64,000 bases of DNA from Candidatus Limnocylindrales bacterium (GTDB lineage Bacteria > Chloroflexota > Limnocylindria > Limnocylindrales > CSP1-4): positions 22,697-86,696 of the forward strand of contig DASUKL010000052.1 in assembly GCA_036278755.1 (NCBI GenBank), in the 5' to 3' direction. The notes under the pieces are model-generated. The model was given only the letters and a program-made list of their open reading frames with translations. It was not told the DNA's origin and did no database searches. How positions within the stretch are numbered: position 1 is the first letter of the stretch; each line of letters starts with the position of its first letter. Shown here piece by piece: positions 5,375 to 61,679 of the stretch. The translations under genes and the position numbers were made by a program.

Positions 5375-6214
5375 TCAGCGCTCGATGGGCACCCCGACCA
5401 TGGAGCCCCATTCGGTCCACGAACCGTCGTAGTTGCGGACGCGGGGGTAGCCCAGCAGCTCGTGCAGGACGAACCAGCTGTGGCTCGACCGCTCGCCGAT
5501 GCGGCAGTAGGCGATGATGTCCCGATCGGGCGTCACGCCCTTGGCCTCGTAGAGCGACTTCAACTCATCGGGGCTCTTGAAGCGCCCGTCCTCGGCCACG
5601 GCCTGCGACCAGGGGACCGAGGCCGCCCCGGGGATGTGCCCGCCGCGCTGGGCCGTCTCGGACAGTCCGGGAGGGGCCAGCACCTCGCCGCTGAACTCGG
5701 CCGGCGAGCGGACGTCGACCAGGGCCAGGGTGGCGTCACCGATGCGCGGCAGGATGTCGTCGCGGAAGGCGCGCAGGGCGAAGTCGGGCTGCGAGACCGT
5801 GATCGAGCCCGCGGGGTGCGATGGCGCGTCCACGGTCAGCGGCAGGGCCTTGTCCAGCCACAGCTTGCGGCCGCCGTCGAGCAGCGAGACGTTCTCGATG
5901 CCGTGCAGCCGGAGCTGCCAGTAGGCCCAGGCGGCGAACCAGTTGCTGTTGTCGCCGTAGAGGACGATGTGGGTGTCATCGTCCACGCCGGCCGCCCGCA
6001 GGAGAGCCTGGAGGTCCTCGGTGCTGGCCAGGTCGCGGCGCAGGCCGTCGGCCAGCTGGCTCGTCCAGTCCCAGCCCACGGCGCCTGGGATGTGCCCCTG
6101 GTCGTAGGCGGTCGTGTCGACGTCCACTTCGATGAAGCGGACCTTGGGGTCGTCGAGATGCTCTCGGGCCCAATCCGCCGTGACGAGCGGCTGGGTCGCG
6201 ATCGATGTGGTCAT
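5375..6214 (-). CDS. sseA: thiosulfate / 3-mercaptopyruvate sulfurtransferase (tandem rhodanese)
   Basis: 279 aa with two rhodanese domains. Active-site CRIGERSSHSWFVL, N-terminal VRFIEVD...GHIPGAV, C-terminal WTEWGSMVGVPIER. Confidence 0.85.
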   Translation of the reverse strand: MTTSIATQPLVTADWAREHLDDPKVRFIEVDVDTTAYDQGHIPGAVGWDWTSQLADGLRRDLASTEDLQALLRAAGVDDDTHIVLYGDNSNWFAAWAYWQLRLHGIENVSLLDGGRKLWLDKALPLTVDAPSHPAGSITVSQPDFALRAFRDDILPRIGDATLALVDVRSPAEFSGEVLAPPGLSETAQRGGHIPGAASVPWSQAVAEDGRFKSPDELKSLYEAKGVTPDRDIIAYCRIGERSSHSWFVLHELLGYPRVRNYDGSWTEWGSMVGVPIER

Positions 6215-46305: not shown

Positions 46306-47979
46306 CTACATCGACTCGGGCGCGGAGATGCCCAGCAGACCCAGGGTGTCGGCCAGGGCGAGGCGGACGGCGGAGACGAGGCGCAGGCGCTGGGCCGAGG
46401 TGACCGCGTCGGTCGCATCGACCACCCGCCGGTCGCGGTAGTAGGCGTGGAAGGCGGTGGCCAGCTCGGTGGCATAGGTGGCCAGGCCCTGAGCTTCCTC
46501 GGCCGCGGCGGCGTCCTCGACGACTTCGGACAGGCGCAGCACGCGCAGGGCCAGGGCGGCGGCGACGGGGTCGTGGGCCAGGGCCTGAGGATCCGTGGCC
46601 GGGGCGGCCGCGAGGTCGGCCTCGGCGGCCTTGCGGAGGATCGAGCTGATCCGGGCGTGGGCGTACTGGGCGTAGTAGACCGGGTTCTCCGCGGACTGCT
46701 TCTTGGCCAGCTCGATGTCGAAGTCGATGCCCACGGTGTGCCCGCGGGCGGCGAAGAACCAGCGGGCCGCGTCGACCCCGATCTCGGCCAGCAGCTCGTC
46801 GAGGGTGATGAACTCCCCGGCGCGCTTGGACATCGAGACCTCCGCCCCATCGCGCACGAAGCGGACCCAGGCGATAAGCAGGACCTCCACCCGCTCGGCC
46901 CCGAAGCCCATGGCCTGGGCGGCGTTGCGCAGGCGAGCCACGGTGCCGTGGTGGTCGGCCCCCCAGAGGTAGATGAGCCGGTCGAAGCCGCGCCCGAACT
47001 TGTCCACGAGGTATCCGACGTCCGAGCCGAAGTACGTGGACTGGCCGTTGGAGCGGCGCAGGACGCGGTCCTTGTCGTCACCGTAGCTCGTGGAGCGGAA
47101 CCACAGCGCCCCGTCCTGCTCGTAGGTCGCGCCGGCCGCGGCGAGCCTGGCCAGGGCGTCCTCGACGTGGCCTTCGGCGTACAGCGAGCCCTCGCTCTTC
47201 CAGACGTCGAAGCGGACCCCCAGGCGAGCCAGCGAAGCCTCGATGCCGGCCCGGATGCGCTCCGAGGCCCAGGCGCCCAGGAGGCTCTCGGCATCGGCGC
47301 CAGGGGCCTCGGCCTGGGCCCACAGCTCGGCCGGCAGCTCGGCCGCCAGGGTCTCGACGTAGGCCCCGCGATAGCCGTCCTCGGGGATCGGCTGGCCGGC
47401 CCGCACGGCCCGCACCGAGGCGCCCAGGTTGCGGACCTGCGAGCCGAAGTCGTTGAAGTAGTACTCGCGGGTGACGTGGTGGCCGGCGGCTTCGAGGATG
47501 CGGCATAGGAGATCGCCCACGAAGGCCCCCCGGGCGTTGCCGATGTGCAGCGGCCCGGTGGGATTGGCCGAGACGAACTCGACGTCGATGCGCCGGCCCC
47601 CGCCCTGCCCCGCCGGCAGGCGGCCGAAGTCCGGCCCGGCGACGAGGGCCGCGTCGAGGGCTGCGGCCAGGTGGTCCGGGGCGAGACGGACGTTGAGGAA
47701 GCCCGGCGCAGCGACCTCGACCCCGGCGATGGCCGGATCCGCGACGCGGGCCGCGATGGCCGCGGCGATGGCCATCGGCGGGCGGCGCAGCGGGCGGGCC
47801 AGCTTGAGGGCCAGGTTGGAGGCGTAGTCGCCATGGGCCGGGTCGCCGGGCCGCTCGACCTCGACGGCCGGCGGGCCGGAGGCCTCGGTGTCGTGGGTCA
47901 GGTCGCCGGCCGCGACGGCGGCGAGATAGGCCCGTTCGATGGCCTGGCGCACGGCGCTGCGCAGGGTGCCTGGCTCCAC
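46306..47979 (-). CDS. argS: arginine--tRNA ligase
   Basis: 557 aa. VEFVSANPTGPLHIGNARGA (HIGH region), MSKRAG (KMSKS-like), and the C-terminal DALR anticodon-binding domain. GTG start with GGAGG SD. Confidence 0.9.
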   Translation of the reverse strand: MEPGTLRSAVRQAIERAYLAAVAAGDLTHDTEASGPPAVEVERPGDPAHGDYASNLALKLARPLRRPPMAIAAAIAARVADPAIAGVEVAAPGFLNVRLAPDHLAAALDAALVAGPDFGRLPAGQGGGRRIDVEFVSANPTGPLHIGNARGAFVGDLLCRILEAAGHHVTREYYFNDFGSQVRNLGASVRAVRAGQPIPEDGYRGAYVETLAAELPAELWAQAEAPGADAESLLGAWASERIRAGIEASLARLGVRFDVWKSEGSLYAEGHVEDALARLAAAGATYEQDGALWFRSTSYGDDKDRVLRRSNGQSTYFGSDVGYLVDKFGRGFDRLIYLWGADHHGTVARLRNAAQAMGFGAERVEVLLIAWVRFVRDGAEVSMSKRAGEFITLDELLAEIGVDAARWFFAARGHTVGIDFDIELAKKQSAENPVYYAQYAHARISSILRKAAEADLAAAPATDPQALAHDPVAAALALRVLRLSEVVEDAAAAEEAQGLATYATELATAFHAYYRDRRVVDATDAVTSAQRLRLVSAVRLALADTLGLLGISAPESM

Positions 47980-49521: not shown

Positions 49522-50289
49522 TCAGCCCTCCTCGAGGTGCTCCAGGACGAGGCCCGGCCGGGCCATGGCCACCGGGCCGTCGAACGTGCGGCGGGCTCGG
49601 GTCGCTGCGCCCGCCACGGCCTGGTCCAGGACGTGGGTCAGGATGAGCCGGCTGGCCCCTCCGTCGCGCGCCACGGCCGCGGCCTCGGCGGCATCGAGGT
49701 GCATCGCGGCCGGTTCGTTGGGCAGGGCCCCGAAGGCGGCCTCGGAGAGCAGCGTGTCCCTGGGCCGTACGAGGGCCAGCAGGTCGGCCATCCGGCCGCA
49801 GTCACCCGAGTAGACGAGCCCCGGACCGTCGGCCGCGCCGGCCGGCGTGATCCGGAAGGCAAAGCTGGGGCCCACGTGCGTCACGACCCCGATCTCGACC
49901 TCCAGTTCGCCGATCGTCCGGCGCCCGGGCTCGAGCTCGAGGCCCGAGCCGGGCAGGCAGCTCAGGAAGTCGGGCTCGTGCATCAGCACGTCATAGCGGG
50001 CCCGCAGGCCCACCGGCGCGTGGAGGGCCAGGGAGTGGCCCGGCCCGCAGCCCCAGCGCAGGTAGTGGCGCAGGGGGACGAGATCGATGTGATGGTCGGG
50101 GTGGAGGTGGCTGATCATCATCGCCGTCAGGCTCTCGGGCGGCAGCCGCGAGCCCAGGGCGGCGAAGCTGCCCTGTCCGATGTCGAAGCAGATCCGCGTC
50201 TCGCCCTCCTCCACGAGGTAGCAGGAGGAGGAGAGGCCGGCCGAGCGCCGGGTGTAGGCCGGGCCGGCACCGACCACGGTCAGCTTCAT
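49522..50289 (-). CDS. MBL-fold metallo-hydrolase (RNase Z/ElaC-like subfamily)
   Basis: ATG at 50289 (MKLTVVGAGPAY...). MMISHLHPDHHIDLVPL (HxHxDH). C-terminal LILTHV. The upstream part of the 409-aa ORF is Arg/Pro junk. Confidence 0.65.
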   Translation of the reverse strand: MKLTVVGAGPAYTRRSAGLSSSCYLVEEGETRICFDIGQGSFAALGSRLPPESLTAMMISHLHPDHHIDLVPLRHYLRWGCGPGHSLALHAPVGLRARYDVLMHEPDFLSCLPGSGLELEPGRRTIGELEVEIGVVTHVGPSFAFRITPAGAADGPGLVYSGDCGRMADLLALVRPRDTLLSEAAFGALPNEPAAMHLDAAEAAAVARDGGASRLILTHVLDQAVAGAATRARRTFDGPVAMARPGLVLEHLEEG

Positions 50290-51143
50290 GCGCCCACGGC
50301 CCCGGGAGCCACGGGCAGCGGCCCATCCAGGGGCAGCGCACCGCGGCGCCAGGCGAGGGCCGCGAAGCCGGACCGCTCGAGCAGCCCGTACGCCTCGCTG
50401 AGGCCGAAGCCGAAGTGGTCGAGCCGATGGGCGTCGGAGCCGGCCGTCACGCGCTGGCCGCCCAGGGCCCGGAAGCGCTCCACGGCGGCCCGCGGCGGAT
50501 AGGTCTCGAGCGCCTCCTGGCGCAGCCCCGAGCTGTTGACCTCGAGGGCCGTGCCGCTCTCCACGAGGGCCGTCAGGACCCGCTCGTAGAGGTCGGCGTG
50601 GGGCTCGTAGGCGAAGGGACCCAGATAGGGCACGAGGTAGCGCTTGATGAAGTCGAGGTGGCCCAGGGTGTCGAACAGACCGCTCCGAGCGGCCGCCTCG
50701 ACCTCCTTCCAGTAGGGCTGACTGGCCTCGCGGGGCGTCTTGTCGGCGCACCAGCGGGCCGCGGCGGTCCGATCACGAAAGGGGCTGTCGGGCCCCACGT
50801 GGACCGAGCCGATGATGAAGTCGTAGGCATGGCTCGCCAGATGGGCCCGGATGTCGTCCTCGAAGCGGCGCTCGTAGGTGATCTCGACGCCGAAGCGGAT
50901 GATGGGCCGGCCGGCCCAGCGCTCAGCGGCCTCGCCGACGACCCGTCGCCGGCGCTCGTAGTCGGTGAAGGCGAAGGCCGGGGCTCGGGGGTCGAAGTCG
51001 AGGTGGTCGGTGATCATCAGCTCGGCCACCTCGCGCTCCCGAGCGGCAGCGGCGTAGAGGTCGATGGGGACGTCCGCATCCGGCGAGAGGTCGGTGTGGA
51101 GGTGGGCATCGAGGGGCAGATCCAGGCGGTCGGGCGTGGGCAT
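50286..51143 (-). CDS. PHP-domain phosphoesterase (HisJ/histidinol-phosphatase-like family)
   Basis: LDAHLHTDLSPDA, ELMITDHLDFD, FIIGSVHV, AGSDAHRLDHFG are PHP metal-binding His/Asp motifs. Stop overlaps the MBL ATG (ATGA). Confidence 0.7.
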   Translation of the reverse strand: MPTPDRLDLPLDAHLHTDLSPDADVPIDLYAAAAREREVAELMITDHLDFDPRAPAFAFTDYERRRRVVGEAAERWAGRPIIRFGVEITYERRFEDDIRAHLASHAYDFIIGSVHVGPDSPFRDRTAAARWCADKTPREASQPYWKEVEAAARSGLFDTLGHLDFIKRYLVPYLGPFAYEPHADLYERVLTALVESGTALEVNSSGLRQEALETYPPRAAVERFRALGGQRVTAGSDAHRLDHFGFGLSEAYGLLERSGFAALAWRRGALPLDGPLPVAPGAVGA

Positions 51144-51265
51144 CGCCGCGCAAGGCTAGCGCGCCCCGGTCCACCCCGCGCGGCCACCGGGCAGGCGCCG
51201 GCGTAGCCACCCCTGGTCTGTGGCGATCCCGGCACTTCTGGCCTGGGGGCCTCCCCGGCGATGCC

Positions 51266-51530
51266 CCTGCCGTCACGCCCAGCGGTACAAACGACGAATG
51301 ACCCGGCGGCCGGCGGCCTGCCGTCACGCCCAGCGGTACAAGCGACGAACGAACCTGCGGCCGACGGCCTGCCGTCACGCCCAGCGGTACAAGCGACGAA
51401 CGAACCGGCGGCCAGCGGTCAGTCGTCACGCCCAGCGGCACATCCGACCGGTCTGCCCGTCATCCGTTGCACCCAGCGAACCATCCGACCGTTGGGCTCG
51501 CAGCCGTTCGTCGCTTGTCACGCCGGCTGG
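51266..51530. repeat. three tandem 51-bp direct repeats plus a degenerate fourth copy and a downstream inverted 14-bp arm, in the XRE-TPR / PHP-MBL intergenic region
   Basis: Copies at 51266, 51317 and 51368 share cctgccgtcacgcccagcggtacaagcgacgaacgaac plus a variable 13-nt tail. A partial copy follows at 51419. The sequence cgttcgtcgcttgt at 51497 is the reverse complement of acaagcgacgaacg found in each copy. Confidence 0.8.
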
Positions 51531-51728
51531 AACAAGCCTCCGTGGGACCGGCGTAGCATCACCGGCAGGAGGTGCCTCACGCGTCAGGAGCAGCTGCTCA
51601 GTGTCCTGCTCATCGCATTCGTCATCCTGCTGGCCCTGAGCGTGGTGGTCATCGTCGTCGCCGGGGTGGTGGCGCCGGCCTCGCCGGTCGGCCCTGGCTG
51701 AGGCGCGAGCGGCAGCCGGAACACCACC

Positions 51729-53039
51729 CTACTGCGAAGCGGCCGCCCGCATCAGCTCGTAAGCGCGGCGATGGTCGCCGCTCTCCGCGGCTAGGGCGGC
51801 CCAGGCCCGCAGGACCTCTGCCCGCCGCGACGGCAGACCATGCTCGGCGGCTATGTCGGCAGCGCGCTCGAAGTCGGTCGCCGCAGCCGACACATCGCCC
51901 AGAGCCTGCGCCGCCCGCGCCCGGGTGGTGAGGGCGTCGATCGCCGCCTTGTGATTGCTGCTGGCCTCCGCGTGCGTAAGCGCCGTCGTGGCCAGCTCGC
52001 GGGCGTTCTTGGGTTGACCGCGGGCGATAGCGATCTGGGCCTGCGTGTCGAGGACGTGGGCCAGCTTGCGCACATCATCGAAGCGAGCGAGGGCGGCGGC
52101 AGCCGCGGCCGCGTGGGTCTCGGCCGCGACGAGGTTGCCCAGCACGAGATAGGTCAGGGCGAGGTTGTTGTCCATCGCCGCGGCGTCGCGCTCGGCGGCC
52201 GCCTCGGCGTAGAGCGCCACGCTCCGCTGGCCCTGTCGCAGCGCCCCCTCGAAGTCGCCAAGTTCTCGGTAGCTGGCGGAGAGGGCGGCCGCGAACGAGG
52301 CGCGGCGCAGGGCATCGAAGCCGGCAGCGGCGCGCTGCGCCTCCTGGAGGAGGGCCAGGGCACTGGCGTGATCCCCGCGCCGGGCGTCCACGTTGGCCGC
52401 CGCCACCAGCGCGCGCACGTGCAGGTCCGGATCGACGCCCGGGTCGCCTGAGCGATCATCGAGCAGGCCGCGGAGCAGGCCGCGGGCCTCATCGAGGTCA
52501 TCGCTGCCGTAGTAGGCGGCGGAGAGCCAGTAGCGTGCCAGCGCAGCATCCGCAAGGCGGCCCGCCGCAGTGAAGAGCTCGAGGGCCTCCCCAGCCGGCG
52601 CGATCGCGTCGGCGCCCCGATCCAGGCGACAGAGCGCCTCGGCCTGGGCGCGCAAGAGCTCGGCCCGGGTCAGCGCGGCGGGCTCCCGGGCGAGGAGGGC
52701 GGCGTACCCGTCGGCCGCGGCCTGCCAATCGCCCGAGGCGAGATGCAGATCGGCATCGAGCCGCAGGGCGACGACGTCATCGTCACCTACGAGTGTGGCG
52801 GGCGTCGTCCCGAGCCGGGCTGCGAGATAGGCCAGCGCCTTGATCGATGGTTGGGTCAGGCTGTTCTCGAGGGCCGAGACATACGCCTTCGAGTACTGCT
52901 CGCCCGCTAGTTCCGCCTGGGTCAGCCCGGCTGCCAGACGAGCGGCACGGATCCGTGCGCCCATGCCCTGTGCGCTCCGGGCCGGAGGCCGCCCGACGCG
53001 ACGGGCCGACGGGGCCGATCGGGCGGACGTCGTGCTCAT
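51729..53039 (-). CDS. XRE-family HTH transcriptional regulator with C-terminal TPR-like helical repeat domain
   Basis: IRAARLAAGLTQAELAGEQYSKAYVSALENSLTQPSIKALAYLAARLG (HTH_XRE). Then about 330 aa of Ala-rich helical repeats. Confidence 0.75.
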   Translation of the reverse strand: MSTTSARSAPSARRVGRPPARSAQGMGARIRAARLAAGLTQAELAGEQYSKAYVSALENSLTQPSIKALAYLAARLGTTPATLVGDDDVVALRLDADLHLASGDWQAAADGYAALLAREPAALTRAELLRAQAEALCRLDRGADAIAPAGEALELFTAAGRLADAALARYWLSAAYYGSDDLDEARGLLRGLLDDRSGDPGVDPDLHVRALVAAANVDARRGDHASALALLQEAQRAAAGFDALRRASFAAALSASYRELGDFEGALRQGQRSVALYAEAAAERDAAAMDNNLALTYLVLGNLVAAETHAAAAAAALARFDDVRKLAHVLDTQAQIAIARGQPKNARELATTALTHAEASSNHKAAIDALTTRARAAQALGDVSAAATDFERAADIAAEHGLPSRRAEVLRAWAALAAESGDHRRAYELMRAAASQ

Positions 53040-53182
53040 GCTTGGCAGTGTACTCGATTATCCAGGCGGGTGGACAGACGGCCATTCATTAGTCAGTCCC
53101 ACTGGACTATTGCGCCCAGTTAGGCGTACCATCAGAGCGCCAACCCCGGACCGGACGTGCCCTCTCGGGAGGTTCGTCCGAC

Positions 53183-53695
53183 ATGCGAGAAGGCTCGCCA
53201 ACTCAGCGGCTAGGGACGGATTTCTCCGAGCCAACAGTCTATGATGCGATCAGGGAAGGCCTGTCGAGGAATGGACTGACGGGCGATAATGCCTTGGGGA
53301 TCGACCTCACGGACTATGCTGTCGGCTCTGTCGCCCACGTCACATCGTTGGCGAAGGAGGTGCCGTCCTATGAGCTGGCTGAGCTTCGAGTTGGAGGAGA
53401 AGTCCGAGCAGTCGTTCGCGTTGATGACACCGAAAACGGATACCTCTTCGCAGCTCTCAGCCCCGCAGGCAGCGACTACCCATTCGCCTCCACCGCGACC
53501 CTGAGCCGCTACATGACGGCCAACGGACTCAGCGGCACAGGAACTCTGGTCTGGGCCTGGGCGGACGAAGGCGCATCACCCTTCACACCGTACGTGGAAT
53601 CGACTAACCCTTCATCCAGCTCGCCCACGTACCTAACCCCCCAGGGTGTCTTCGCAACTCTCCATCTAGCCCCCGGCCTCACTCCATCCCAATAG
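53183..53695 (+). CDS. hypothetical protein (first gene of lower-GC island)
   Basis: 170 aa of balanced composition (MREGSPTQRLGTDFSEPTVYDAIREGLSRNGLTGDNALGIDLTDYAVGSV...). About 57% GC, against about 72% in flanks. No family recognised. Confidence 0.4.
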   Translation: MREGSPTQRLGTDFSEPTVYDAIREGLSRNGLTGDNALGIDLTDYAVGSVAHVTSLAKEVPSYELAELRVGGEVRAVVRVDDTENGYLFAALSPAGSDYPFASTATLSRYMTANGLSGTGTLVWAWADEGASPFTPYVESTNPSSSSPTYLTPQGVFATLHLAPGLTPSQ

Positions 53696-53744
53696 GGGAC
53701 CTGCCCCGCGGCATGCAACCATGCCCCAGATCGCGGAGAGCTGC

Positions 53745-53771
53745 TGAACGTTCTTGGGCAGCTGCCCGTCT
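53745..53771 (+). promoter_or_regulatory. ECF-sigma-type promoter (TGAAC-N17-CGTCT) upstream of the ECF sigma gene (likely autoregulatory)
   Basis: tgaac at 53745-53749, a 17-nt spacer, and cgtct at 53767-53771. This fits the GGAAC-N16/17-CGTCT pattern of ECF promoters. It implies translation starts at ATG 53801 (AGGAA SD). Confidence 0.45.
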
Positions 53772-53800
53772 CTACAGATGTGGAGCTTCACCAGGAACCG

Positions 53801-54337
53801 ATGCGCCCACTCGCTAGCCTCGACGTCCACGGCGGTCCAGCCTACTCTGAGGCTGAGTTCGTGCGGCTAGTTGAGCCGGAACTGCGACACGCGTACCACT
53901 TGGCACTGATGCTGCTTCGCAATGCCGCCACGGCCGAGGATGTGGTCCAAACCGCCATCTTGCGTGCCTGGGCCGGCTGGCCCACGCTACGGGACCGGGA
54001 CCGCTTCGTTCCTTGGTTCCACAGCATCCTAATCAATGCCTGTCGCGACGAGCTCCGGCCACGCGGGCGAATACGCTGGCTCCCGCTCGATCAAGTCAGT
54101 ATCATCGCTCCGGATGGCCTAGACTCGGCTCTAGACCGCGATGTTATCGGTCGGGCATTCACAGTATTGCCGCTCCCTGAGCAGGAAGTTTTGGCTCTCC
54201 GGTTCTGGGCTGACTTGACCGTGGCGGAGATCGCATCCCGGGTCGGGGCGCCGGTAGGCACCGTCAAGTCTCGGTTGCACTCGGCATTGAGACGCATGCG
54301 GGCGGCTGTCGAGGAAGCAGGGCAGGGGACGGCATGA
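53801..54337 (+). CDS. ECF-type RNA polymerase sigma-70 factor
   Basis: Region 2 (HAYHLALMLLRNAATAEDVVQTAILRAW...FVPWFHSILINACRDELR) and region 4 (LPLPEQEVLALRFWADLTVAEIASRVGAPVGTVKSRLHSALRRMR). The ORF track starts at GTG 53780. ATG 53801 is preferred from promoter geometry. Confidence 0.8.
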   Translation: MRPLASLDVHGGPAYSEAEFVRLVEPELRHAYHLALMLLRNAATAEDVVQTAILRAWAGWPTLRDRDRFVPWFHSILINACRDELRPRGRIRWLPLDQVSIIAPDGLDSALDRDVIGRAFTVLPLPEQEVLALRFWADLTVAEIASRVGAPVGTVKSRLHSALRRMRAAVEEAGQGTA

Positions 54338-55668
54338 ATATGCTCGACGACGAGCTTGAGCGCAGGATTCGGCGCTGGTTTGAGCGCATGACTCTTCCTA
54401 CCGAGCCGGATAGCCTGCACGAGGCGCTGCAACGTCTACCACCGACGACTCGTCGCAGGCGACAGTGGATAGTCGTTCCGAGTATTGTTGCCGGCTTGCT
54501 GGCGGCGATATCACTCATCGGACTACTAATCTTCGCGAACTCCTTGCTGGGTTCAGGCCAAGGAACTGGTTCGGGGCAGCCCATTGCCTCACAGACCACG
54601 ACCACTCCCTCATCTCGTCCAACGCCACACGAAATAACACTCGCGGGTAAGCTCACCGCAAGCGAGGGATGGGCTATAGCCGACGGCGTCCTCCAGTGGA
54701 CCAATGATAACGGCACCTCATGGCACCTCACGAAAGACCTCAATGCATGGCCCCTCCTCCCAACGAGCCAGGTTGGGTTCATCGACTCCATGCATGGGTG
54801 GGGGCTCAATTTGGCAGACCCTGCACGGCCGTTGTTCGAGGTGACCAGCGATGGTGGTCAGAGTTGGGCCGCAGTCCAGCTGCCGGACATGCCAGGATCG
54901 CCATCCTCTCCTTATTTCTCCAATGTGCATTCCGGGTGGCTCGTGATAACACATGCCAGTGGAAGCGGTGAGCTGCTAGCGACTGGTGACGGCGGGGCAA
55001 GCTGGCATGTCCTAGGCTCGGTCCCATCGAGCATCCTTGGCCCCGTCGTGTTCCTCGACGAGTCTAATGCCATCGCGATCGGGACAAGCGATCCTGTTGC
55101 TGCCGCAGGACGAACGGCTGATTCGCTGTTCGTAACGCATGATCAAGGACGAACGTGGACACACGTCAACATTCCTACCCCGACCGGATTCGGCTCTACC
55201 AAATCGTCTTCTGTGGCGCAACTCCCGAGAGCGACTTCCGGAAGCAGCGCGGTCGCCGTAATAGATGTTTCAAGCAGTGCGGCGTCGATTACTGAATTGC
55301 TGAGGACCAATGACCGTGGCAGCACATGGAGCATTGCAGGGATTCTGCCAGCGGACAACAGCGGCCTGCCGTTCGCAATGGCTACACCGGGTCGATGGCT
55401 CGCTGCCTTCGCGTCCGGCGGAGCCAGCGCGCCGACGCTCATGGAATCGTTGGACGCGGGCAGGACGTGGCATCCCGTGATGGTCACAGGGTTCCCTCAG
55501 TCCCCTGTGTTCAAGAGCCTGATGTTCTCGGACGCTCAGGATGGCTGGGCCCTGGTCGATTTGGCACCTACCCCTGACGCCCAAGTGACAGTCAGCGGTC
55601 AGCTATTCGCAACGACCGATGGTGGCGCGCACTGGATTTCCATAATGTCGGGACTGCAGGTGCCTTAA
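54334..55668 (+). CDS. putative anti-sigma factor: N-terminal cytoplasmic segment, single TM, extracytoplasmic BNR/Ycf48-like repeat domain
   Basis: ATG overlaps the sigma factor TGA (ATGA). TM is IVVPSIVAGLLAAISLIGLLIF. Repeated S.DGG.SW / TxDxGxTW BNR-type motifs: TNDNGTSWH, TSDGGQSWAAV, TGDGGASWHV, THDQGRTWTHV, TNDRGSTWS, SLDAGRTWHPV, TTDGGAHWI. Confidence 0.6.
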   Translation: MNMLDDELERRIRRWFERMTLPTEPDSLHEALQRLPPTTRRRRQWIVVPSIVAGLLAAISLIGLLIFANSLLGSGQGTGSGQPIASQTTTTPSSRPTPHEITLAGKLTASEGWAIADGVLQWTNDNGTSWHLTKDLNAWPLLPTSQVGFIDSMHGWGLNLADPARPLFEVTSDGGQSWAAVQLPDMPGSPSSPYFSNVHSGWLVITHASGSGELLATGDGGASWHVLGSVPSSILGPVVFLDESNAIAIGTSDPVAAAGRTADSLFVTHDQGRTWTHVNIPTPTGFGSTKSSSVAQLPRATSGSSAVAVIDVSSSAASITELLRTNDRGSTWSIAGILPADNSGLPFAMATPGRWLAAFASGGASAPTLMESLDAGRTWHPVMVTGFPQSPVFKSLMFSDAQDGWALVDLAPTPDAQVTVSGQLFATTDGGAHWISIMSGLQVP

Positions 55669-55807
55669 TAGCGAGAGCGTCGTCGGGTTCCGAGACTCTG
55701 CCACCACAAGTAACTTGACTCGACCCCAGCCTCTTCGTTTCCGGGCTTCCCGCGTGACCGCGGCACTAGGCATACCATGGCGAGTGGCCACAAGAAGCCA
55801 TGAAGAC

Positions 55808-55837
55808 TTGACAATGGCAACTATCAGTTTGTAGAAT
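55808..55837 (+). promoter_or_regulatory. sigma70-like promoter (TTGACA-N18-TAGAAT) upstream of the DUF1906-like gene
   Basis: ttgaca at 55808-55813 and tagaat at 55832-55837 in a 326-bp lower-GC intergenic region. An approximately 155-nt leader follows. Confidence 0.45.
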
Positions 55838-55994
55838 CCGGGTCACACCCTAGCCGCCAAGCAGCGGCATCGACGGAGAACCTCCTGGGCCCGAACCCGC
55901 AGAGGGCGACCTCCCCTCTCCAGGGGCGGGTTCCAAGGGTCACACACGGGTATGGGCATGGCCGAGGCCGCGGCCCTGAGCGGGAGGCAAAGCC

Positions 55995-56876
55995 ATGTGC
56001 TCACGCAATCGTCGATTCGTCTACACGAGCCATTCGCGACGACTGCTCGTCGCCATAACGGCACTCGCCTCTCTACTGATACCAGGATTGCGGGTGTCGG
56101 CATCGATTGGCACGCAAACCTACGTCCTCGCCGAAGGATTCGATACGTGCGCCAATGTCAGTGCAGCGACACTGAGCGCGTGGTGGAATGGTACTCCATG
56201 GTATGTCTACGGGACCTATCTTGGCGGAAGCGGCGGCGCATATGTTGGCTGTGTCCCTATGAGTCAGGCGACGATCAATTCTGCAATCGGGCAAGGTTGG
56301 GCGCTCGAACCGTTTTGGTATGGGCGCCAAATGCCGTCTTCTTGCATCCGCGAGACATATCCTTCGACCATTAGCCTCAACACCACAACTGCATATAGTC
56401 AAGGAAAGAGTGAGGCCGACTCGGCGAACACCGCTGCCGCATCGTTCGGATACGGAACTTTTGACATAATCTATTACGATCTGGAGGCGACAGGAGACTC
56501 CTCCGCTTGCATAGCGGCCGCCAAGGCGTTCGTAAACGGCTGGGAGTACGAGCTTGCGTATTTCACTGCGTATTGGGGAGGATTGTATGGCTCGTCATGT
56601 TCCTCCAACCTATCGTCATTTGCTTCGATCGCTAATGTTCCTCGGGCGATCGCACCAAGAGACGTCAACCACGATCCTACCGGTGTCTATGGTCTATCGT
56701 GTCTTTCGGATAGCCTTTGGGACAATGAACAACGTATCCATCAACTTGCGGCAATGGTGCCTCTGATGTATGGCGGCCATAGCTTAGTTGTTGATGAGGA
56801 TTGTGCCTACGGTCCCGTCGACACTAATTCGGGAGTCGATCGCTCACCCTTCAACTGCAGCTATGTCCACCAGTGA
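55995..56876 (+). CDS. secreted hypothetical protein, possibly DUF1906/Rv2525c-like glycoside-hydrolase-like (TIM-barrel) fold
   Basis: Signal peptide LLVAITALASLLIPGLRVSAS. Many Cys/Trp/Tyr. Blocks LAEGFDTC, FDIIYYDLEA and VNGWEYELAYFTAYWGG are collinear with the GFD...D.D.E...GYW pattern of DUF1906. Low confidence. Confidence 0.4.
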   Translation: MCSRNRRFVYTSHSRRLLVAITALASLLIPGLRVSASIGTQTYVLAEGFDTCANVSAATLSAWWNGTPWYVYGTYLGGSGGAYVGCVPMSQATINSAIGQGWALEPFWYGRQMPSSCIRETYPSTISLNTTTAYSQGKSEADSANTAAASFGYGTFDIIYYDLEATGDSSACIAAAKAFVNGWEYELAYFTAYWGGLYGSSCSSNLSSFASIANVPRAIAPRDVNHDPTGVYGLSCLSDSLWDNEQRIHQLAAMVPLMYGGHSLVVDEDCAYGPVDTNSGVDRSPFNCSYVHQ

Positions 56877-58174
56877 TGACCGGCACCGCCCGGAGGCATG
56901 TTGGCGAGCGGGTGGAGTCAGGAGGATACGGAATGGAGAGGATTCAGTCGACGGGGCATTGCAACTTGCAGATTGCACTTGGAGTGACCGTAACGGCCTT
57001 TATTCTTGCCCTCGAGGGCTGTTCCGCCGCCAGGATTCCGACAAAAGCGACGGCCCCCGCTCTTGGCGCCACGACGGGCCATTCCAGCAATCCGTGGGTT
57101 TCGGCGACCCCTCCAGTCAGTCCCAGCCCGGCCTCCAGCACGCCCCACAGCCTCGACGGACCGGTGGGCTTCGACGGCGCGGCTGGCTGGCGCTTCTCCC
57201 CGGATGGCATGTGGACCTCGAGTGACGGCGGGCGGCACTGGAGCGCTGCGACCCTGCCGGAGGGGGTCCAGCCGACCAAGGTGGTGGCCGCGGCGATCGA
57301 CCCGCAGGGGACGATCTGGCTGGCCGTGATCCACGATCAGGGCCTGGACCTCTATCGCTCCGACCTGCTGGGCCCCTGGTCGATGGTGACCCTGACGCCT
57401 ACCTGGCCGTCGGTCGGCGGCCTGTGGAGCGGGCCACCGGAACGGGTGTCGATCTGGCCTGGACCCGCGGGGCTGGTGACGGTCGTGGCCAGCCAGACCT
57501 CGGGCATGGCCTTGGCCGTTTCGTCGACCTTCGTCTCGACCGACGGTGGACGGACGTTCCGTCAGGGATCTGCCCAGGCCGGCAGCGAGGCCAACCTCGT
57601 CTGGTCGTCCATCGCCTTCGTCGATGCCGATCACGGCGTTGTGGTCGCTGGTCCTGCCGCGAACATCCTGTTCTGGACGGCCGACGGCGGCGCCTCCTGG
57701 TCGCCGAGTTCGGGTGGCGTGAAGCGCGCCTCCGGTGACATGGTGTTCGGCCAGCCCTTCGTCGCCGGCGCAATGATCGAGCTGCCAGTCACGACCGCCG
57801 ACGCCGATGGCGGCGAATCCCTCGCGATCTACGCCAGCTCCGACGGAGGCGGCCACTTCGAGCCGCTCGCGAAGCCGGTCCGGATCGGACCGGACTACGA
57901 CCCGCCGGCCTCCGTGGCCGTGAATGGCCAGACCCTCTGGGCCCTGGGCGAAGGAGCGACGAGCCTCGAGATATCCACCGACGGAGGACGGACATGGACC
58001 TCACGAACGACCGCCGGCCTCTCAGAGAACGCGTCGATGCTGGCCCTGACGGGCGGGGAGGGCGCAGTGGCCGTGGTCAGCGATACGACATGCGCGGGGT
58101 TCAAGAGCGACTGCACGACGGACACCTACCTCGAGTTCACCGCCGACGGCGGCGCGACCTGGAGTCGGCCATGA
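56873..58174 (+). CDS. BNR/Ycf48-like repeat lipoprotein (start probably ATG 56933)
   Basis: Lipobox ILALEGCSA. BNR-like repeats SSDGGRHWSAA, STDGGRTFRQG, TADGGASWSPS, SSDGGGHFEPL, STDGGRTWTSR, TADGGATWSRP. Overlaps the upstream gene's stop. Confidence 0.55.
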   Translation: MMTGTARRHVGERVESGGYGMERIQSTGHCNLQIALGVTVTAFILALEGCSAARIPTKATAPALGATTGHSSNPWVSATPPVSPSPASSTPHSLDGPVGFDGAAGWRFSPDGMWTSSDGGRHWSAATLPEGVQPTKVVAAAIDPQGTIWLAVIHDQGLDLYRSDLLGPWSMVTLTPTWPSVGGLWSGPPERVSIWPGPAGLVTVVASQTSGMALAVSSTFVSTDGGRTFRQGSAQAGSEANLVWSSIAFVDADHGVVVAGPAANILFWTADGGASWSPSSGGVKRASGDMVFGQPFVAGAMIELPVTTADADGGESLAIYASSDGGGHFEPLAKPVRIGPDYDPPASVAVNGQTLWALGEGATSLEISTDGGRTWTSRTTAGLSENASMLALTGGEGAVAVVSDTTCAGFKSDCTTDTYLEFTADGGATWSRP

Positions 58175-59325
58175 GCACGTTCGGCCGGCCAGGACTAGCC
58201 GTCGTGGCCTGCTGCTGCCTGAGCCTTCTTGCCGGATGCAGCGGCGTCGGCAGTCCCTCAACGCCGCCGGTCACATCGGCCCCGCCTTCACCGACCACCG
58301 GGACCTCGGGATCCCCGACGCTATCGGCCAGCGCCCCGGCGTCGGCGACCGCGACAGCGTCGATGACCGTCACGCCCTCGCCAACGACGCCGCCCGACCA
58401 GATCCCCGAGGCGCTTCGGGGCTTGCCGTTCGTCGTCGGGGAGCCGGGTCAGGGCCAGGTCGTCGGGCTCGTCGGATCGAGCGTCCGGCTGTCGGTGCCC
58501 ACGACTTCGACCGTCCTCGCCGCTTCGTCGCGGTACGTCGTGACGGCCAAGCTGGGCAAGGTCCCCGCTGAGGACGTGACGGTCTACGACCTTCAGGGAG
58601 ACACTGCCTCGGCGCTGACCTACGCCATCGGTCGGCCGGTCAGCTCGGCGGCCATCGCGGGCGACGTCGTCCTGCTTGCTGGTCCGGCGCCCAGCGGCGT
58701 CGACGGTGGGGTGACGGCCCTCGACCTTCGGACCCGGACGACCATGCAGCTGGTCAAGCCCGGAGGGGCCGTGAGCCGGCAGAACGTCCGAGCGGTGCTG
58801 CTCTCGTCGAGCGGCCAGACCGCCGTCTCGGCGTCATGCACTTCCGATGGCAGCGGCTGCACGGCCGACGTCATCGACGTGAAGGCCCTGAAGGCAGTGA
58901 GGACAGTGGATCTTGCCGGCTCGCCAAGCGCCGCCACCGACGAGATAGTGCTGGTAAGACCCGACGGCAGCACCATCAGCGGCGTCGACCTCCTCACGGG
59001 CAAACCCCGCTGGAGCCACTGTTGCGAAGAGTACGACTGGTCCTACGCGATCCCTAATGGCTTCATCGTGGCCAAGGGCTCCTACCCGTTCCGCCTCCTC
59101 CTCGTTGATGCAATGTCGGGCGTGGTCACGACCAAGCTCGAACGCGCGACACAGGATCACTGGACACTCTGGCCGTCGCTCTCCACCTCCTCGGCCGCCA
59201 TATTCAGCCCGAACGGTCTGCTCGCGGAGACCGCAGCCGATTCGGGACGCATCGTAGGCGACCTGCTCGACCTAGACACAGGTCAGGTAACCGAGCACGC
59301 CCTCGATATCGGGGCGCGACCATGA
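58171..59325 (+). CDS. hypothetical lipoprotein (beta-rich, S/T/A/V-rich)
   Basis: ATG overlaps the upstream TGA (ATGA). Lipobox LLAGCSG followed by an S/P/T linker. No family recognised. Confidence 0.5.
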   Translation: MSTFGRPGLAVVACCCLSLLAGCSGVGSPSTPPVTSAPPSPTTGTSGSPTLSASAPASATATASMTVTPSPTTPPDQIPEALRGLPFVVGEPGQGQVVGLVGSSVRLSVPTTSTVLAASSRYVVTAKLGKVPAEDVTVYDLQGDTASALTYAIGRPVSSAAIAGDVVLLAGPAPSGVDGGVTALDLRTRTTMQLVKPGGAVSRQNVRAVLLSSSGQTAVSASCTSDGSGCTADVIDVKALKAVRTVDLAGSPSAATDEIVLVRPDGSTISGVDLLTGKPRWSHCCEEYDWSYAIPNGFIVAKGSYPFRLLLVDAMSGVVTTKLERATQDHWTLWPSLSTSSAAIFSPNGLLAETAADSGRIVGDLLDLDTGQVTEHALDIGARP

Positions 59326-60377
59326 GATCCGCACGCACCTTCGTGGCGCTGACCCGGTCGGCCATAGGCGCCATCGGACTCGCCATGGCCCTTAGTGTCG
59401 CCGCGCCCAGCGCGCTACTTGCTCACGTTCCAACGACGGGAGCGAGCAAAGGCAGTTTCGTGAAAGACCAAGCAGTGACCTTCAAGTACGCTTCCGCCAG
59501 CTACCCATCATGGCTTACGACGGCGGTGACCGATACCTTGCAGAACTACTACCACGATGCAAATCACAACAGCCACGCTCCATCACTGACCTACTCCAGC
59601 AATGGAACTGCAGTCGTCCACTATGTCGCCCAAACAACGTCGCCGTGTGGCACTGGCTCGCAGACATGGCTCATGTGCACGACCGGCGGAGGGTCAAGCG
59701 GGTGGGATATATATGTACGCGACCTCGACAACTCGGGATCAAGCAATAACTGGTGGGAGGAGACGCCTCACTGCTCCGCTGGGTCGACGTGCTACTACGT
59801 CCATCGTGCAATGATCCACGAATCCGGTCATGCGATGCTGAGTTTTGCGGATGAGAGTGGTTGGTCGGAAGATGACACGGTCATGAACGGCATTGATCCA
59901 CATGTAGGCGCCACTGGCGCTACTCACTGGGATTACCAGCGGTGCGACGAGGCGGCATCGCAGTTACTATGGGACCTCAAGAACAGCGCCGGGGAGTATG
60001 GCGATTGCTTCGACGATATCGTCAACCACGGAACTCATGGTCTCAAGACGGATCTAACCATGGGAACGACTAGCTACAGCGCATGTAATGGCGACTCAAT
60101 CATCGCTAGCGGTCGCATCCAGGTTCACGACTATTCAAGCTACGGTCCCCTCGGAGGAAACCCCCTCACCAATCGGACCGTATGGGTCGATCGCGGGAGC
60201 ACGCTTAAGTTCACCTCGGCCATTGCCAGCAACGCTTCGAATGATAATTGGTCGGTAACGCTCAACGGGAGTAGCGTGACCTACAGCTACTCAGCTCATT
60301 TCGACTATTCGTCTGGTTCCGGGCTCGATGCCTCTGCCCACGTTGCCTTTACAGCGCGATGGGGGACCGCCTGCTAG
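59322..60377 (+). CDS. secreted zinc metalloprotease-like protein (HExxH zincin motif)
   Basis: ATGA overlap with the upstream gene. Signal peptide AIGLAMALSVAAPSALLAHV. HRAMIHESGHAML (HExxH) with downstream acidic FADESGWSEDD. Many Cys, Trp and Asn consistent with a secreted disulfide-bonded domain. About 55% GC. Confidence 0.6.
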   Translation: MRSARTFVALTRSAIGAIGLAMALSVAAPSALLAHVPTTGASKGSFVKDQAVTFKYASASYPSWLTTAVTDTLQNYYHDANHNSHAPSLTYSSNGTAVVHYVAQTTSPCGTGSQTWLMCTTGGGSSGWDIYVRDLDNSGSSNNWWEETPHCSAGSTCYYVHRAMIHESGHAMLSFADESGWSEDDTVMNGIDPHVGATGATHWDYQRCDEAASQLLWDLKNSAGEYGDCFDDIVNHGTHGLKTDLTMGTTSYSACNGDSIIASGRIQVHDYSSYGPLGGNPLTNRTVWVDRGSTLKFTSAIASNASNDNWSVTLNGSSVTYSYSAHFDYSSGSGLDASAHVAFTARWGTAC

Positions 60378-60389
60378 TCAAGCGCCCAC

Positions 60390-61679
60390 CTAGACAAGGT
60401 GCAGTTCCCGGCCGGCCGTGGCGAAGGCGTCAAGGCAGGCCTGGAGATCGTCCCGGCTGTGCTCGGACGTGACGATGGTCCGGATGCGGGCCTTGTCCAG
60501 GGCCACCGTGGGGTAGACGATGGCCTGGGCGAAGACGCCCAGCTCGCCCAACCGGTCGGAGAGTCGGGCGGCGTTCTCCGAGGAGCCGACGATGACCGGG
60601 GTGATGGGCGTCTCGCTGATGCCCGTGTCGAAGCCCAGGTCCTCCAGGCCCGACTTGAAGAAGCGGGTGTTGTCCCACAGGCGTTCGATCCGCTCCGGCT
60701 CGCCCTCCAGGACGTCGATGGCGGCCAGGCAGGCGGCGGCCACGGCCGGCGGATGGGAGGTCGAGAAGAGGAACGGCCGCGAGCGCTGGATGAGGTAGTC
60801 CCGCAGGGCCTGGGTCCCGGCCACGTAGCCGCCCAGCACGCCGACGGCCTTCGACAGCGTGCCGACCTGGATGTCGACCCGGCCGTGGAGCCCGAAGTGG
60901 TCCACCGTGCCGCGGCCGTTGTGGCCCAGGACGCCCGAGGCGTGGGCGTCGTCGATCATGACCGCCGCCTCGTAGCGGTCGGCCACGTCGCAGATGGCGG
61001 GCAGGGGACAGATGTCGCCGTCCATGCTGAAGACGCCGTCGGTGATGACCAGGATGTGCTCGTAGGCGCCGTTGGGGCCGCCCTTGGCCCGCGCTTCGCG
61101 GAGGACCGACTCCAGGCCGTCGACGTCCTTGTGGGGGAAGACCGCCCGGGAGGCCTTGGAGAGCCGGACGCCGTCGATGATCGAGGCGTGGTTCAGCTCG
61201 TCGCTGACGATGAGGTCGCGCTCACTCGTGACCGTGGGGATGACCCCACTGTTGGCCGTGAAACCGGACTGGAAGGTGAGGACCGCCTCGGTGTGTTTGA
61301 AGGCCGCCAGGCGCCGTTCCAGCTCCTGGTGGAGCTCCATGGTGCCGGCGATGGTCCGCACCGCACCGCTGCCCACGCCCAGGTCACGGACCGCGGCCAG
61401 GGCCGCCTCCACGAGGTGGGGATGCGTGGCCAGGCCCAGGTAGTTGTTGGAGGAGAGGCTGATGAGCGGCCGCCCGTCCATGACCGCATGCGGTGTCTGG
61501 GCCCCCGACAGGACGCGCAGAGGCCGGTAGAGCGACTGGGCCTTCAGCTCCTCGATGGCCTGGCCGAGGTAGGCCAGGGGGTCCGCGCGGGTCGAAGCCT
61601 GGGCCGGGTCAGGGATCTTGGTCTGCGCCGTGTCGCGGGTCGTGGTCTGCGCCGTGTCGCGAGTCGGGGTCTGGGCCAT
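60390..61679 (-). CDS. kbl: glycine C-acetyltransferase (2-amino-3-ketobutyrate CoA ligase)
   Basis: Collinear with E. coli Kbl: SNNYLGLATHP, DELNHASIIDG, TDGVFSMDGDI, DDAHASG, GTLSKAVG (PLP Lys). The N-terminus carries a 24-nt tandem duplication encoding TRDTAQTT x2. Confidence 0.85.
   Translation of the reverse strand: MAQTPTRDTAQTTTRDTAQTKIPDPAQASTRADPLAYLGQAIEELKAQSLYRPLRVLSGAQTPHAVMDGRPLISLSSNNYLGLATHPHLVEAALAAVRDLGVGSGAVRTIAGTMELHQELERRLAAFKHTEAVLTFQSGFTANSGVIPTVTSERDLIVSDELNHASIIDGVRLSKASRAVFPHKDVDGLESVLREARAKGGPNGAYEHILVITDGVFSMDGDICPLPAICDVADRYEAAVMIDDAHASGVLGHNGRGTVDHFGLHGRVDIQVGTLSKAVGVLGGYVAGTQALRDYLIQRSRPFLFSTSHPPAVAAACLAAIDVLEGEPERIERLWDNTRFFKSGLEDLGFDTGISETPITPVIVGSSENAARLSDRLGELGVFAQAIVYPTVALDKARIRTIVTSEHSRDDLQACLDAFATAGRELHLV

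Follow-up and report, generated by a model that had tools for sequence, protein, structure and literature searches.

Pairs of extracytoplasmic function (ECF) sigma factors and anti-sigma factors are well known, as are genomic islands. In the described pairs SigL-RslA (of Mycobacterium tuberculosis), SigW-RsiW and SigV-RsiV (of Bacillus subtilis), a minimal sigma factor consisting of regions 2 and 4 is encoded directly ahead of a coupled gene for a single-pass membrane protein, the amino terminus of which lies inside the cell and which displays an extracytoplasmic domain; in canonical pairs a promoter of the GAAC...CGT type is found 5' of the sigma gene, and the corresponding mechanism has been reviewed (PMC8999054). 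RsiV, with an ectodomain that serves as the direct receptor for its ligand (PMC6066255), provides a precedent. A gene pair with all of these general features is found in the 64,000-nucleotide stretch of contig DASUKL010000052.1 from a Candidatus Limnocylindrales bacterium that is analysed here (termed 'the window', at its full length), where an ECF sigma factor is coupled to a membrane protein (termed 'BNR-TM') whose predicted ectodomain is a propeller built from BNR repeats. Because the host belongs to the Chloroflexota, parallels with actinobacterial systems are analogies only. An actinobacterial origin was considered and rejected, since both the nearest kbl loci and the exact protein matches belong to the Chloroflexota or to Candidatus Limnocylindrales; the kbl protein itself returned no exact match.

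Other described systems bear on the same locus. Seven-bladed BNR propellers of similar size are known from the photosystem II assembly factor Ycf48/HCF136 and from the dispase autolysis-inducing protein (DAIP) of Streptomyces, and the DAIP structure 6fhp, a complex with a thermolysin fragment, shows that bacterial propellers of this kind can bind proteins. The Rv2525c protein of M. tuberculosis, which is Tat-secreted and glycoside-hydrolase-like, is presented in PMC10480492 (citing Bellinzoni 2014) as a putative peptidoglycan glycosidase, a role suggested by its structure, whose activity is unproven. The metzincins (matrixins M10A, snapalysin M7 and serralysin M10B) provide the nearest comparison for a further protein of the locus, while classical genomic islands are recognized by deviant GC content and codon usage, by absence from relatives and by a cargo of exported proteins, all of which the locus shares.

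The sigma factor and its partner belong to a segment that is probably a horizontally acquired, mosaic accessory island, placed at a variable chromosomal site and built from three two-gene 'cassettes' that circulate independently among soil bacteria, one of which is the sigma/anti-sigma pair. The segment and the features of the three cassettes are as follows.

51144-60389: lineage-specific segment of 9.2 kb between a PHP-domain gene (50286-51143, minus strand) and kbl (60390-61679, minus strand), delimited by the synteny of 17 related loci (L004-L020)
53745-53771, plus strand: candidate ECF-type promoter, TGAAC-N17-CGTCT, about 30 nucleotides 5' of the ATG at 53801 (cassette 1)
53801-54337, plus strand: ECF (group 4) sigma factor of 178 residues, with an alternative GTG start at 53780 (185 residues) (cassette 1)
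54334-55668, plus strand: BNR-TM, candidate anti-sigma factor, its gene overlapping that of the sigma factor by four nucleotides (ATGA, 54334-54337) (cassette 1)
55808-55837, plus strand: candidate sigma-70-like promoter, TTGACA-N18-TAGAAT, matching the consensus at 11 of 12 positions, 5' of the next gene
55995-56876, plus strand: Rv2525c-like protein, Cys/Trp-rich, predicted to be secreted and glycoside-hydrolase-like, PF08924 (formerly DUF1906) (cassette 2)
56933-58174, plus strand: BNR/Ycf48-like propeller, putative lipoprotein with an atypical LEGC box and six Asp-boxes (cassette 2)
58171-59325, plus strand: lipoprotein of unassigned fold with an LLAGC lipobox, as expected of its class, and a Pro/Ser/Thr-rich linker (...CCCLSLLAGCSG) (cassette 3)
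59322-60377, plus strand: HExxH protein with a signal peptide, a metzincin-like N-terminal domain and an Ig/Fn3-like C-terminal domain, its gene overlapping the preceding one by ATGA at 59322-59325 (cassette 3)

The surroundings of this segment are well conserved. The nearest kbl loci, all from uncultured Chloroflexota, comprise 17 related loci (L004-L020; L-numbers designate comparison loci or contigs throughout) in which kbl is 73-88% identical at the amino-acid level. Each keeps the gene order DUF3105 gene - tdh - kbl and carries, 134 bp to 2.8 kb past kbl, homologues of window positions 50343-51146 (the PHP-domain protein), 49540-50292, 46309-47970 and further genes. All 17 loci lack every one of the island genes, as well as the gene for the TPR-HTH regulator that lies to the left of the island. 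Since the relatives without the segment keep synteny on both of its sides, the stretch from 51.15 to 60.39 kb can be regarded as lineage-specific; it is wider than its low-GC part, and takes in the TPR-HTH regulator and a tandem repeat. The site downstream of kbl is variable among the relatives, where the gap 3' of kbl differs both in length and in content. At three of these loci (L006:11201-13256, L008:1489-3608 and L010:11270-14100) the gap is occupied by a gene for an unrelated HTH protein, nuclease-like in its C-terminal part, and by a SAM-methyltransferase-like gene; the L006 gap also includes a run of N, and the low GC value calculated there is unreliable.

The original prediction had placed a low-GC island at 53.04-60.38 kb. 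Measured against the background of the window (54 bins of 1 kb, 0.733 +/- 0.018), the region from 53.0 to 60.4 kb is indeed the sole departure in GC content, the remainder being very even at 0.70-0.76. The profile falls to 0.52-0.64 between 53.0 and 56.9 kb (0.55-0.63 in the 1-kb bins from 53 to 57 kb, z -6 to -10), recovers to 0.69-0.72 between 57.0 and 58.9 kb (0.70 in the bins from 57 to 59 kb, z -1.6 to -1.9) and falls again to 0.56-0.63 between 59.0 and 60.4 kb (0.60-0.65 in the bins from 59 to 61 kb). The partial rise within the island had thus been correctly located, but its level is 0.70 and not the anticipated 66% or so. For the GC content of third codon positions (GC3), nine core genes validated by homology to relatives provide the reference (0.929 +/- 0.035). 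Five genes lie far below this value (0.56-0.70 against 0.93, z = -6.5 to -10.5), namely those for a hypothetical protein termed hyp170 (0.655), the ECF sigma factor (0.698), BNR-TM (0.634), the Rv2525c-like protein (0.558) and the HExxH protein (0.659); the genes for the BNR lipoprotein (0.829), the lipoprotein that follows it (0.821) and the TPR-HTH regulator (0.844) are near native, at 2.4-3.0 standard deviations below the core.

Several observations weigh against acquisition, or at least against a simple form of it. No tRNA gene is found in the window, and no integrase, transposase or flanking direct repeats at the segment: Pfam searches of its nine products recovered no recombinase domain, and no long direct repeats flank it. 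The original prediction had likewise noted that neither an integrase nor a tRNA marks the boundary. In these respects, and in its internally mosaic composition, the island is unlike classical genomic islands, and it displays no DNA similarity to plasmid or phage records. The relatives that lack it are distant (kbl 73-88% identical), so that loss in other lineages, though improbable, might account for the distribution. A role as defence-system or phage cargo was considered but is not supported, as PADLOC and PHROGs matched just generic HTH and sigma domains and the plasmid and phage comparison was negative.

These points would be accommodated if the block were ancestral, had been lost from the sampled relatives at a site that varies in all of them, and owed its low GC content to fast evolution of, or relaxed selection on, accessory proteins that are exported. 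The lack of mobility genes and of att-like repeats agrees with such a history, as does the finding that no relative of BNR-TM exceeds 31% identity among 5.8 billion proteins; a homologue of the HExxH protein in another genome (L090) is, moreover, also the gene of lowest GC3 in its neighbourhood. Yet absence from all 17 relatives would then demand many independent losses, mutation bias in a genome of 73% GC would not be expected to yield a GC3 of 0.56 (the five deviant genes lie 6-10 standard deviations below the core), the same families are host-like in GC3 in other high-GC genomes, and homologues of the Rv2525c-like protein at 59-69% identity are found in unrelated contexts. An ancestral origin is accordingly quite improbable. 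The foreign composition of the island and its absence from the conserved tdh-kbl/PHP synteny of the relatives make acquisition the better reading, as had been proposed.

Acquisition did not, however, leave a uniform block. When GC3 is followed in windows of 40 codons, it jumps from about 0.66 to about 0.9 near 57.05-57.1 kb, within the first 50 or so codons for the BNR lipoprotein; a second sharp switch is found at about 59.25 kb. Both fall within open reading frames (ORFs) that are intact, or at their margins. In GC3 the island is therefore a mosaic of three parts, low, then near native, then low again. The two breaks also split two gene pairs that are conserved elsewhere, separating the Rv2525c-like gene (0.56) from that of the BNR lipoprotein (0.83), and the second lipoprotein gene (0.82) from that of the HExxH protein (0.66). 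This suggests recombination within cassettes, and counts against the island history in its plainest form: one donor per cassette is too simple and does not explain breaks that fall inside conserved cassettes.

A contig assembled from a metagenome may also acquire such breaks artificially, through the joining of lower-GC DNA into a high-GC metagenome-assembled genome (MAG), and the source of the window is a MAG. The same sample was also assembled independently in Logan; the contig from that assembly (L001), which represents the same genome, is 100% identical to the window over positions 51377-57315 and crosses the fall in GC content at 53.04 kb, so that a chimeric contig is disfavoured for at least the left half of the island. 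The L001 contig stops at 57315, about 250 nucleotides past the first GC3 switch, and at its other end at 51377, inside the tandem repeat, both of which an advocate of chimerism might cite; against this, ORFs remain intact across both internal switches, and the right edge of the island lies 12 nucleotides from the intact stop codon of kbl. An assembly or binning artefact is, on balance, a very remote prospect.

The first cassette begins with the ECF sigma factor, whose membership of the ECF sigma-70 family is clear from Pfam (Sigma70_r2, 53.7 bits against a cut-off of 24; r4, 48.1 against 24.1; r4_2, 44.2 against 25.7) and from TIGR02937 (75.4 against 42.9). Only regions 2 and 4 are present, with no regulatory extension. 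The best NCBIfam match, the Streptomyces-type SigE family TIGR02983, reaches 102.3 bits, though this is below its cut-off of 141.55, and the closest solved relative is SigL of M. tuberculosis (E 4e-16). The ATG at 53801 is the likelier start, being preceded by AGGA and by a leader of about 22 nucleotides after the candidate promoter. The domain assignments of the original prediction, for this protein (Sigma70_r2/r4) and for the others of the island (the BNR repeats, PF08924, the second BNR protein, the lipoprotein and the HExxH protein), were all recovered in profile searches, and its ATGA coupling of the sigma and transmembrane genes corresponds to the four-nucleotide overlap listed above.

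The partner protein, BNR-TM, matches the Pfam models BNR (35.5 bits against 27), Sortilin-Vps10 (43.5 against 33) and BNR_2 (31.8 against 31.4). Its AlphaFold2 (AF2) model (pLDDT 81) comprises helices at residues 2-18 and 25-33, a transmembrane helix at 38-71, a disordered stretch at 73-96 and, over residues 100-440, a domain made up entirely of beta structure. An RRRR stretch ahead of the transmembrane helix (about 45-72 by topology) predicts a single pass with the N terminus inside and the propeller outside. Seven Asp-boxes are present, as expected of a BNR/Asp-box propeller with seven blades. Among solved folds of similar size, Foldseek ranks Ycf48 (5oj3, TM-score 0.59) and Streptomyces DAIP (6fhp/5fzp, 0.56-0.58) best; sortilin Vps10 and GH74 also match. 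Unlike Ycf48 and DAIP, the propeller of BNR-TM is tethered via a transmembrane helix to a cytoplasmic tail and is encoded in a sigma-coupled gene, and since the protein falls below the cut-offs of both PSII_BNR (21.9 against 27) and NF010237 (25.2 against 326), it is not a Ycf48 orthologue.

Although the closest relatives of BNR-TM are at most about 31% identical, the coupling of the two genes is conserved. Full-length relatives share a helix of the LExxLRxxF/Y type, a basic stretch, one transmembrane helix, a low-complexity linker and the propeller. An ECF sigma gene lies directly 5' of the BNR-TM homologue in all five relatives for which the locus was compared (L003 and L084-L087), with a four-nucleotide overlap in four of them, and the sigma factors concerned are 33-45% identical to that of the window. 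A metagenome sample of 80 loci with BNR homologues yielded 76 ORFs that could be scored; an ECF sigma gene abuts 27 of these on the upstream side, often with overlaps of one or four nucleotides. These 27 are the ones that carry an N-terminal extension and a transmembrane helix; no abutting sigma gene was found in this sample at BNR proteins with a signal peptide, at lipoproteins or at giant BNR proteins. Homologues of the pair, whose absence from every other genome had been named as grounds for abandoning the original prediction, are thus readily found, and the BNR sensor, which had been thought unusual for an anti-sigma factor, is a widespread environmental class and not a rare one. Because the ECF-BNR loci range in GC content from 0.50 to 0.72, the class spans several lineages; and because the GC3 of the pairs elsewhere equals that of their neighbours, low GC is specific to the copy in the window. 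At one of these loci (L085:1785-6803) the ECF and BNR-TM genes lie directly 3' of murT/gatD-like genes (Mur_ligase_M/MurT_C and GATase_3), a possible link to the cell wall.

BNR-TM is most likely an anti-sigma factor. It remains a candidate, in that the role is derived from topology and conserved coupling rather than from homology: the gene is coupled to that of a sigma factor, and the product combines an N-in single pass with an extracytoplasmic sensor, as membrane anti-sigma factors do, while its short N terminus matches no known anti-sigma domain. The cytoplasmic part of about 37 residues, which argues against the assignment, has no HxxxCxxC motif, no Pfam anti-sigma domain and no match in the PDB at E <= 10; it contains two short helices, no Cys/His motif and no Pfam match within residues 1-100, and is not a class I anti-sigma domain. 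Unlike the canonical pairs, this one shows no match to ZAS, zf-HC2 or RskA, and its ectodomain is a seven-bladed BNR propeller in a chloroflexotal host.

The same features could be read to mean that BNR-TM is a sigma-dependent surface protein, either a target or a co-sensor, which is merely co-transcribed with a sigma factor that is regulated otherwise. Beyond the brevity of the tail in comparison with the classical four-helix domain, and its lack of a zinc motif or of Pfam and PDB matches, such a reading can draw upon the weak conservation of the N terminus across the family (a mean identity of 33% per column and a single invariant Arg). It does not readily explain why coupling by one or four nucleotides and an N-in single-pass topology are kept in more than 30 divergent loci, nor why signal-peptide-bearing BNR homologues never occur with a sigma gene. 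A sigma factor reduced to regions 2 and 4, with no regulatory extension, also fits poorly with regulation by other means, and short two-helix anti-sigma domains, of the CnrY type, are known. This alternative is consequently improbable, and the anti-sigma role is retained in what follows. A literature search returned no paper on a BNR/Ycf48-like propeller in an ECF anti-sigma factor, and the main text of the 2021 ECF classification by Casas-Pastor (ECF Hub) makes no mention of BNR, propellers or Chloroflexi. A propeller sensor joined to a minimal cytoplasmic tail thus appears to be undescribed in the literature that was searched.

The promoter motif predicted for the sigma gene, TGAAC-N17-CGTCT, was located at the position listed above, where its placement resembles that in canonical pairs. 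L087, the closest partner, has the same motif 5' of its sigma gene, and L085 has GAAC-N18-CGTA in the corresponding place. Its significance is tempered by three results that run counter to autoregulation and to control of the island: the motif is absent from 25 of 26 other partner-sigma upstream regions (one in 26, against 3.8% of control windows); the TGAAC form is not significant in the window (two found against 0.9 expected); and the ECF motif was not found upstream of any island gene other than the sigma gene. A regulon defined by the motif is accordingly not supported, in that GAAC-N15-18-CGTC gives 18 matches in the window against 8.9 expected, none of them upstream of another island gene. 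Since the motif occurs upstream of the sigma gene only, a regulon extending over the other island genes is unsupported. The single other match to TGAAC-N16-18-CGTC in the window is at 5692-5716 (plus strand).

The second cassette couples the Rv2525c-like protein to the BNR lipoprotein. The former matches PF08924 over residues 65-269 (63.7 bits against 27.2, E 3e-17, model positions 4-196 of 198), which places it in that family; no solved chain matches its sequence significantly. It shares with Rv2525c the PF08924 domain and export; unlike Rv2525c, it is Cys/Trp-rich and is found repeatedly beside, or fused to, a BNR propeller, an association that, to our knowledge, has not been reported for Rv2525c. 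Its gene has the lowest GC3 in the island, and it has 57 relatives, up to 69% identical; homologues at 59-69% identity occur in unrelated contexts. In the public annotation (P0105, 260 residues) the gene begins 33 codons later, so that positions 55995-56093 are dropped and with them a predicted signal peptide containing an RR pair (SRNRRFVY).

The BNR lipoprotein scores 34.2 bits with BNR and 29.6 with PSII_BNR, the latter above its cut-off of 27, but only 25.7 against 326 with NF010237, and so falls outside Ycf48/HCF136. The last genes of the island had been described as a chain of ATGA overlaps; such overlaps are present at 58171-58174 and at 59322-59325, but the junction between the Rv2525c-like and BNR lipoprotein genes reads GTGATGA, with a much better start, AGGAGG-N7-ATG, at 56933.

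Two features had also been proposed upstream of the Rv2525c-like gene. The sigma70-type promoter is present as a sequence, at 55808-55837; because one such site was found where 1.7 are expected in shuffles, it is a candidate by virtue of its position alone. The structured leader (or riboswitch) was rejected: no Rfam match was obtained (E <= 1, 50.5-61 kb), the fold has a z of -1.35, with 20 of 200 shuffles as stable as the native sequence, and there is no conservation with L094 or L095.

The partnership of the two proteins is better founded. In L094 and L095 a homologue of the Rv2525c-like protein (59%) is followed by one of the BNR lipoprotein (40%). Altogether three other contigs have the two side by side and two have them fused, as single ORFs in which the propeller and the Rv2525c-like domain follow each other in opposite orders (L107:474-2261 and L121:187-2178). 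Adjacency and two-way fusion argue well for a joint function of the two proteins. In L094 (247-1572 and 7427-9548) the pair has a GC3 of 0.72 against 0.89-0.96 for its neighbours, and the contig also carries a DDE transposase. In L096:1092-4675, which is uniformly about 60% GC, the Rv2525c-like, BNR lipoprotein and ECF sigma genes follow in a row, and the next, overlapping ORF, which is cut off by the end of the contig, encodes the N-terminal signature of the BNR-TM family, a transmembrane helix and a linker rich in Pro and Ser. The first two cassettes can therefore travel together; besides the window, L096 is alone in this, one of about 33 sigma-linked loci. Within the window, the sensor and lipoprotein propellers are distant paralogues (30% identity over 202 residues).

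In the third cassette, the gene for the lipoprotein at 58171-59325 overlaps the preceding gene by ATGA (58171-58174), and its product gives only a faint match to PQQ_2. The HExxH protein that follows has no Pfam or NCBIfam match. Its motif, HESGH at residues 166-170, is placed on a helix (residues 160-173) in the AF2 model (pLDDT 69, with residues 185-233 below 50), and across a family of 17 clusters H166, E167, H170 and six Cys are invariant. With the HExxH invariant and a modelled fold that resembles those of matrix metalloproteinases (MMPs) and snapalysin, the protein is predicted to be a zincin. It differs from the metzincins named above in that the extended HExxHxxGxxH/D motif is absent: the sequence reads HESGHAMLSFAD, and the alignment of 17 sequences has no Gly at +3 and neither a His nor an Asp conserved at +6. 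As to a Met-turn, residues T186 and V187 do not vary, and in the window protein a Met comes next (DTVM), within a stretch modelled at a pLDDT below 50. Because the extended motif is lacking, the protein is best described as a metzincin-like zincin, with no named family. Two other contigs (L090 and L092) repeat this arrangement, with a homologue of the lipoprotein (34% and 31% identity, respectively) encoded ahead of the HExxH homologue, and no ECF sigma gene lies near either.

The original prediction regarded the block as a single cell-surface module, and it might still be argued that all seven plus-strand genes form one co-adapted unit for surface signalling and envelope remodelling, acquired as a whole and controlled by the ECF factor. 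The genes do share one strand and short or overlapping junctions, with no terminator predicted between them; the sensor and lipoprotein propellers are paralogous; the first two cassettes recur together in L096; and the pair in L085 adjoins genes for peptidoglycan amidation (murT/gatD). Such coherence is difficult to reconcile with the two sharp GC3 switches, with the ECF motif upstream of the sigma gene only, with the separate sigma-70-like promoter candidate of the Rv2525c-like gene, or with the occurrence of each cassette alone elsewhere: homologues of the Rv2525c-like protein lie near one of about 33 sigma-linked loci, and those of the HExxH protein near none. A single module is thus an unlikely description, and the picture of a GC3 mosaic of three cassettes, found apart in other genomes, is preferred to it.

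Within that mosaic, the first cassette may operate much as the canonical systems do. The two short N-terminal helices of BNR-TM, within its tail of 37 residues, would presumably tether the sigma factor to the membrane, and the seven-bladed ectodomain would act as the sensor. Binding of a ligand, or perturbation of the envelope, at the propeller might then lead to release of the sigma factor, most likely through proteolysis of the anti-sigma factor as in canonical pairs, and the free sigma factor could activate its own operon from TGAAC-N17-CGTCT, with transcription perhaps reading through into the downstream genes on the same strand. The second cassette is a functional unit of a putative peptidoglycan glycosidase and a propeller lipoprotein, and the third is an unrelated conserved pair. 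Because the propeller of the second cassette is a distant paralogue of the sensor, a product of the cell wall or of glycans might be suggested, speculatively, as the ligand that is sensed.

A bolder proposal can be framed from the same material, in which ECF and BNR-propeller pairs constitute an undescribed class of surface signalling system, widespread in Chloroflexota-like and other soil bacteria, the seven-bladed, Ycf48/DAIP-like propeller receptor of which is tied to the Rv2525c-like/BNR-lipoprotein unit and reports turnover of, or attack upon, the wall (through muropeptides or glycans), and in which the two-helix N terminus is a new minimal anti-sigma domain. Taken as a whole, this proposal is tentative, and its odds are well short of even.

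The remaining features of the lineage-specific segment lie to the left of the three cassettes.

51266-51442, plus strand: tandem repeat with a 51-bp unit, 3.5 copies and 90% matches (TRF score 284)
51729-53039, minus strand: XRE-type HTH and TPR regulator (Pfam HTH_3 and TPR_12/TPR_2)
53183-53695, plus strand: hyp170, a protein of 170 residues with no signal peptide

The tandem repeat sits exactly at the left break in synteny, and it is within this repeat that the L001 contig ends. Every 51-bp unit holds GAAC-N18-CGTC, a look-alike of the ECF promoter; a search of the rest of the window and of 174 other loci found no further copy of the core of the repeat. On its 3' side, a small ORF (51572-51700, plus strand) preceded by AGGAGG would encode a very hydrophobic peptide of about 40 residues (...LLIAFVILLALSVVVIVVAGVV...). 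The XRE-type regulator, which is divergent from hyp170, has by tblastn among the compared loci a match in L001 alone, the same genome; its HTH resembles the capH or phage-repressor type (PADLOC, PHROGs). The hyp170 family comprises 67 representative clusters, mostly aligned over the last 150 or so residues, for which there is no Pfam model, and the domain is usually the C terminus of proteins of 300-450 residues with C39-like, M14 or PD40 N-terminal domains. That hyp170 might be a 5'-truncated pseudogene was considered and not adopted: because stand-alone homologues that begin with Met exist, it need not be a truncation.

The island is in itself ordinary, representing accessory genes for exported proteins at a variable chromosomal site. 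Its interest lies in the families that it has brought together. The Rv2525c-like domain is now linked to BNR propellers by adjacency and by fusion in both orders, which offers a lead on the unproven function of Rv2525c, and a small family of metzincin-like proteins has been defined, together with its conserved lipoprotein partner. In addition, the seven-bladed BNR/Ycf48-like propeller recurs, at more than 30 independent loci, as the sensor domain of candidate ECF anti-sigma factors, in proteins that are publicly annotated as 'photosystem II assembly factor-like' or as hypothetical. These pairs provide a testable entry to signalling in the uncultured Chloroflexota, together with a candidate for a minimal anti-sigma domain.

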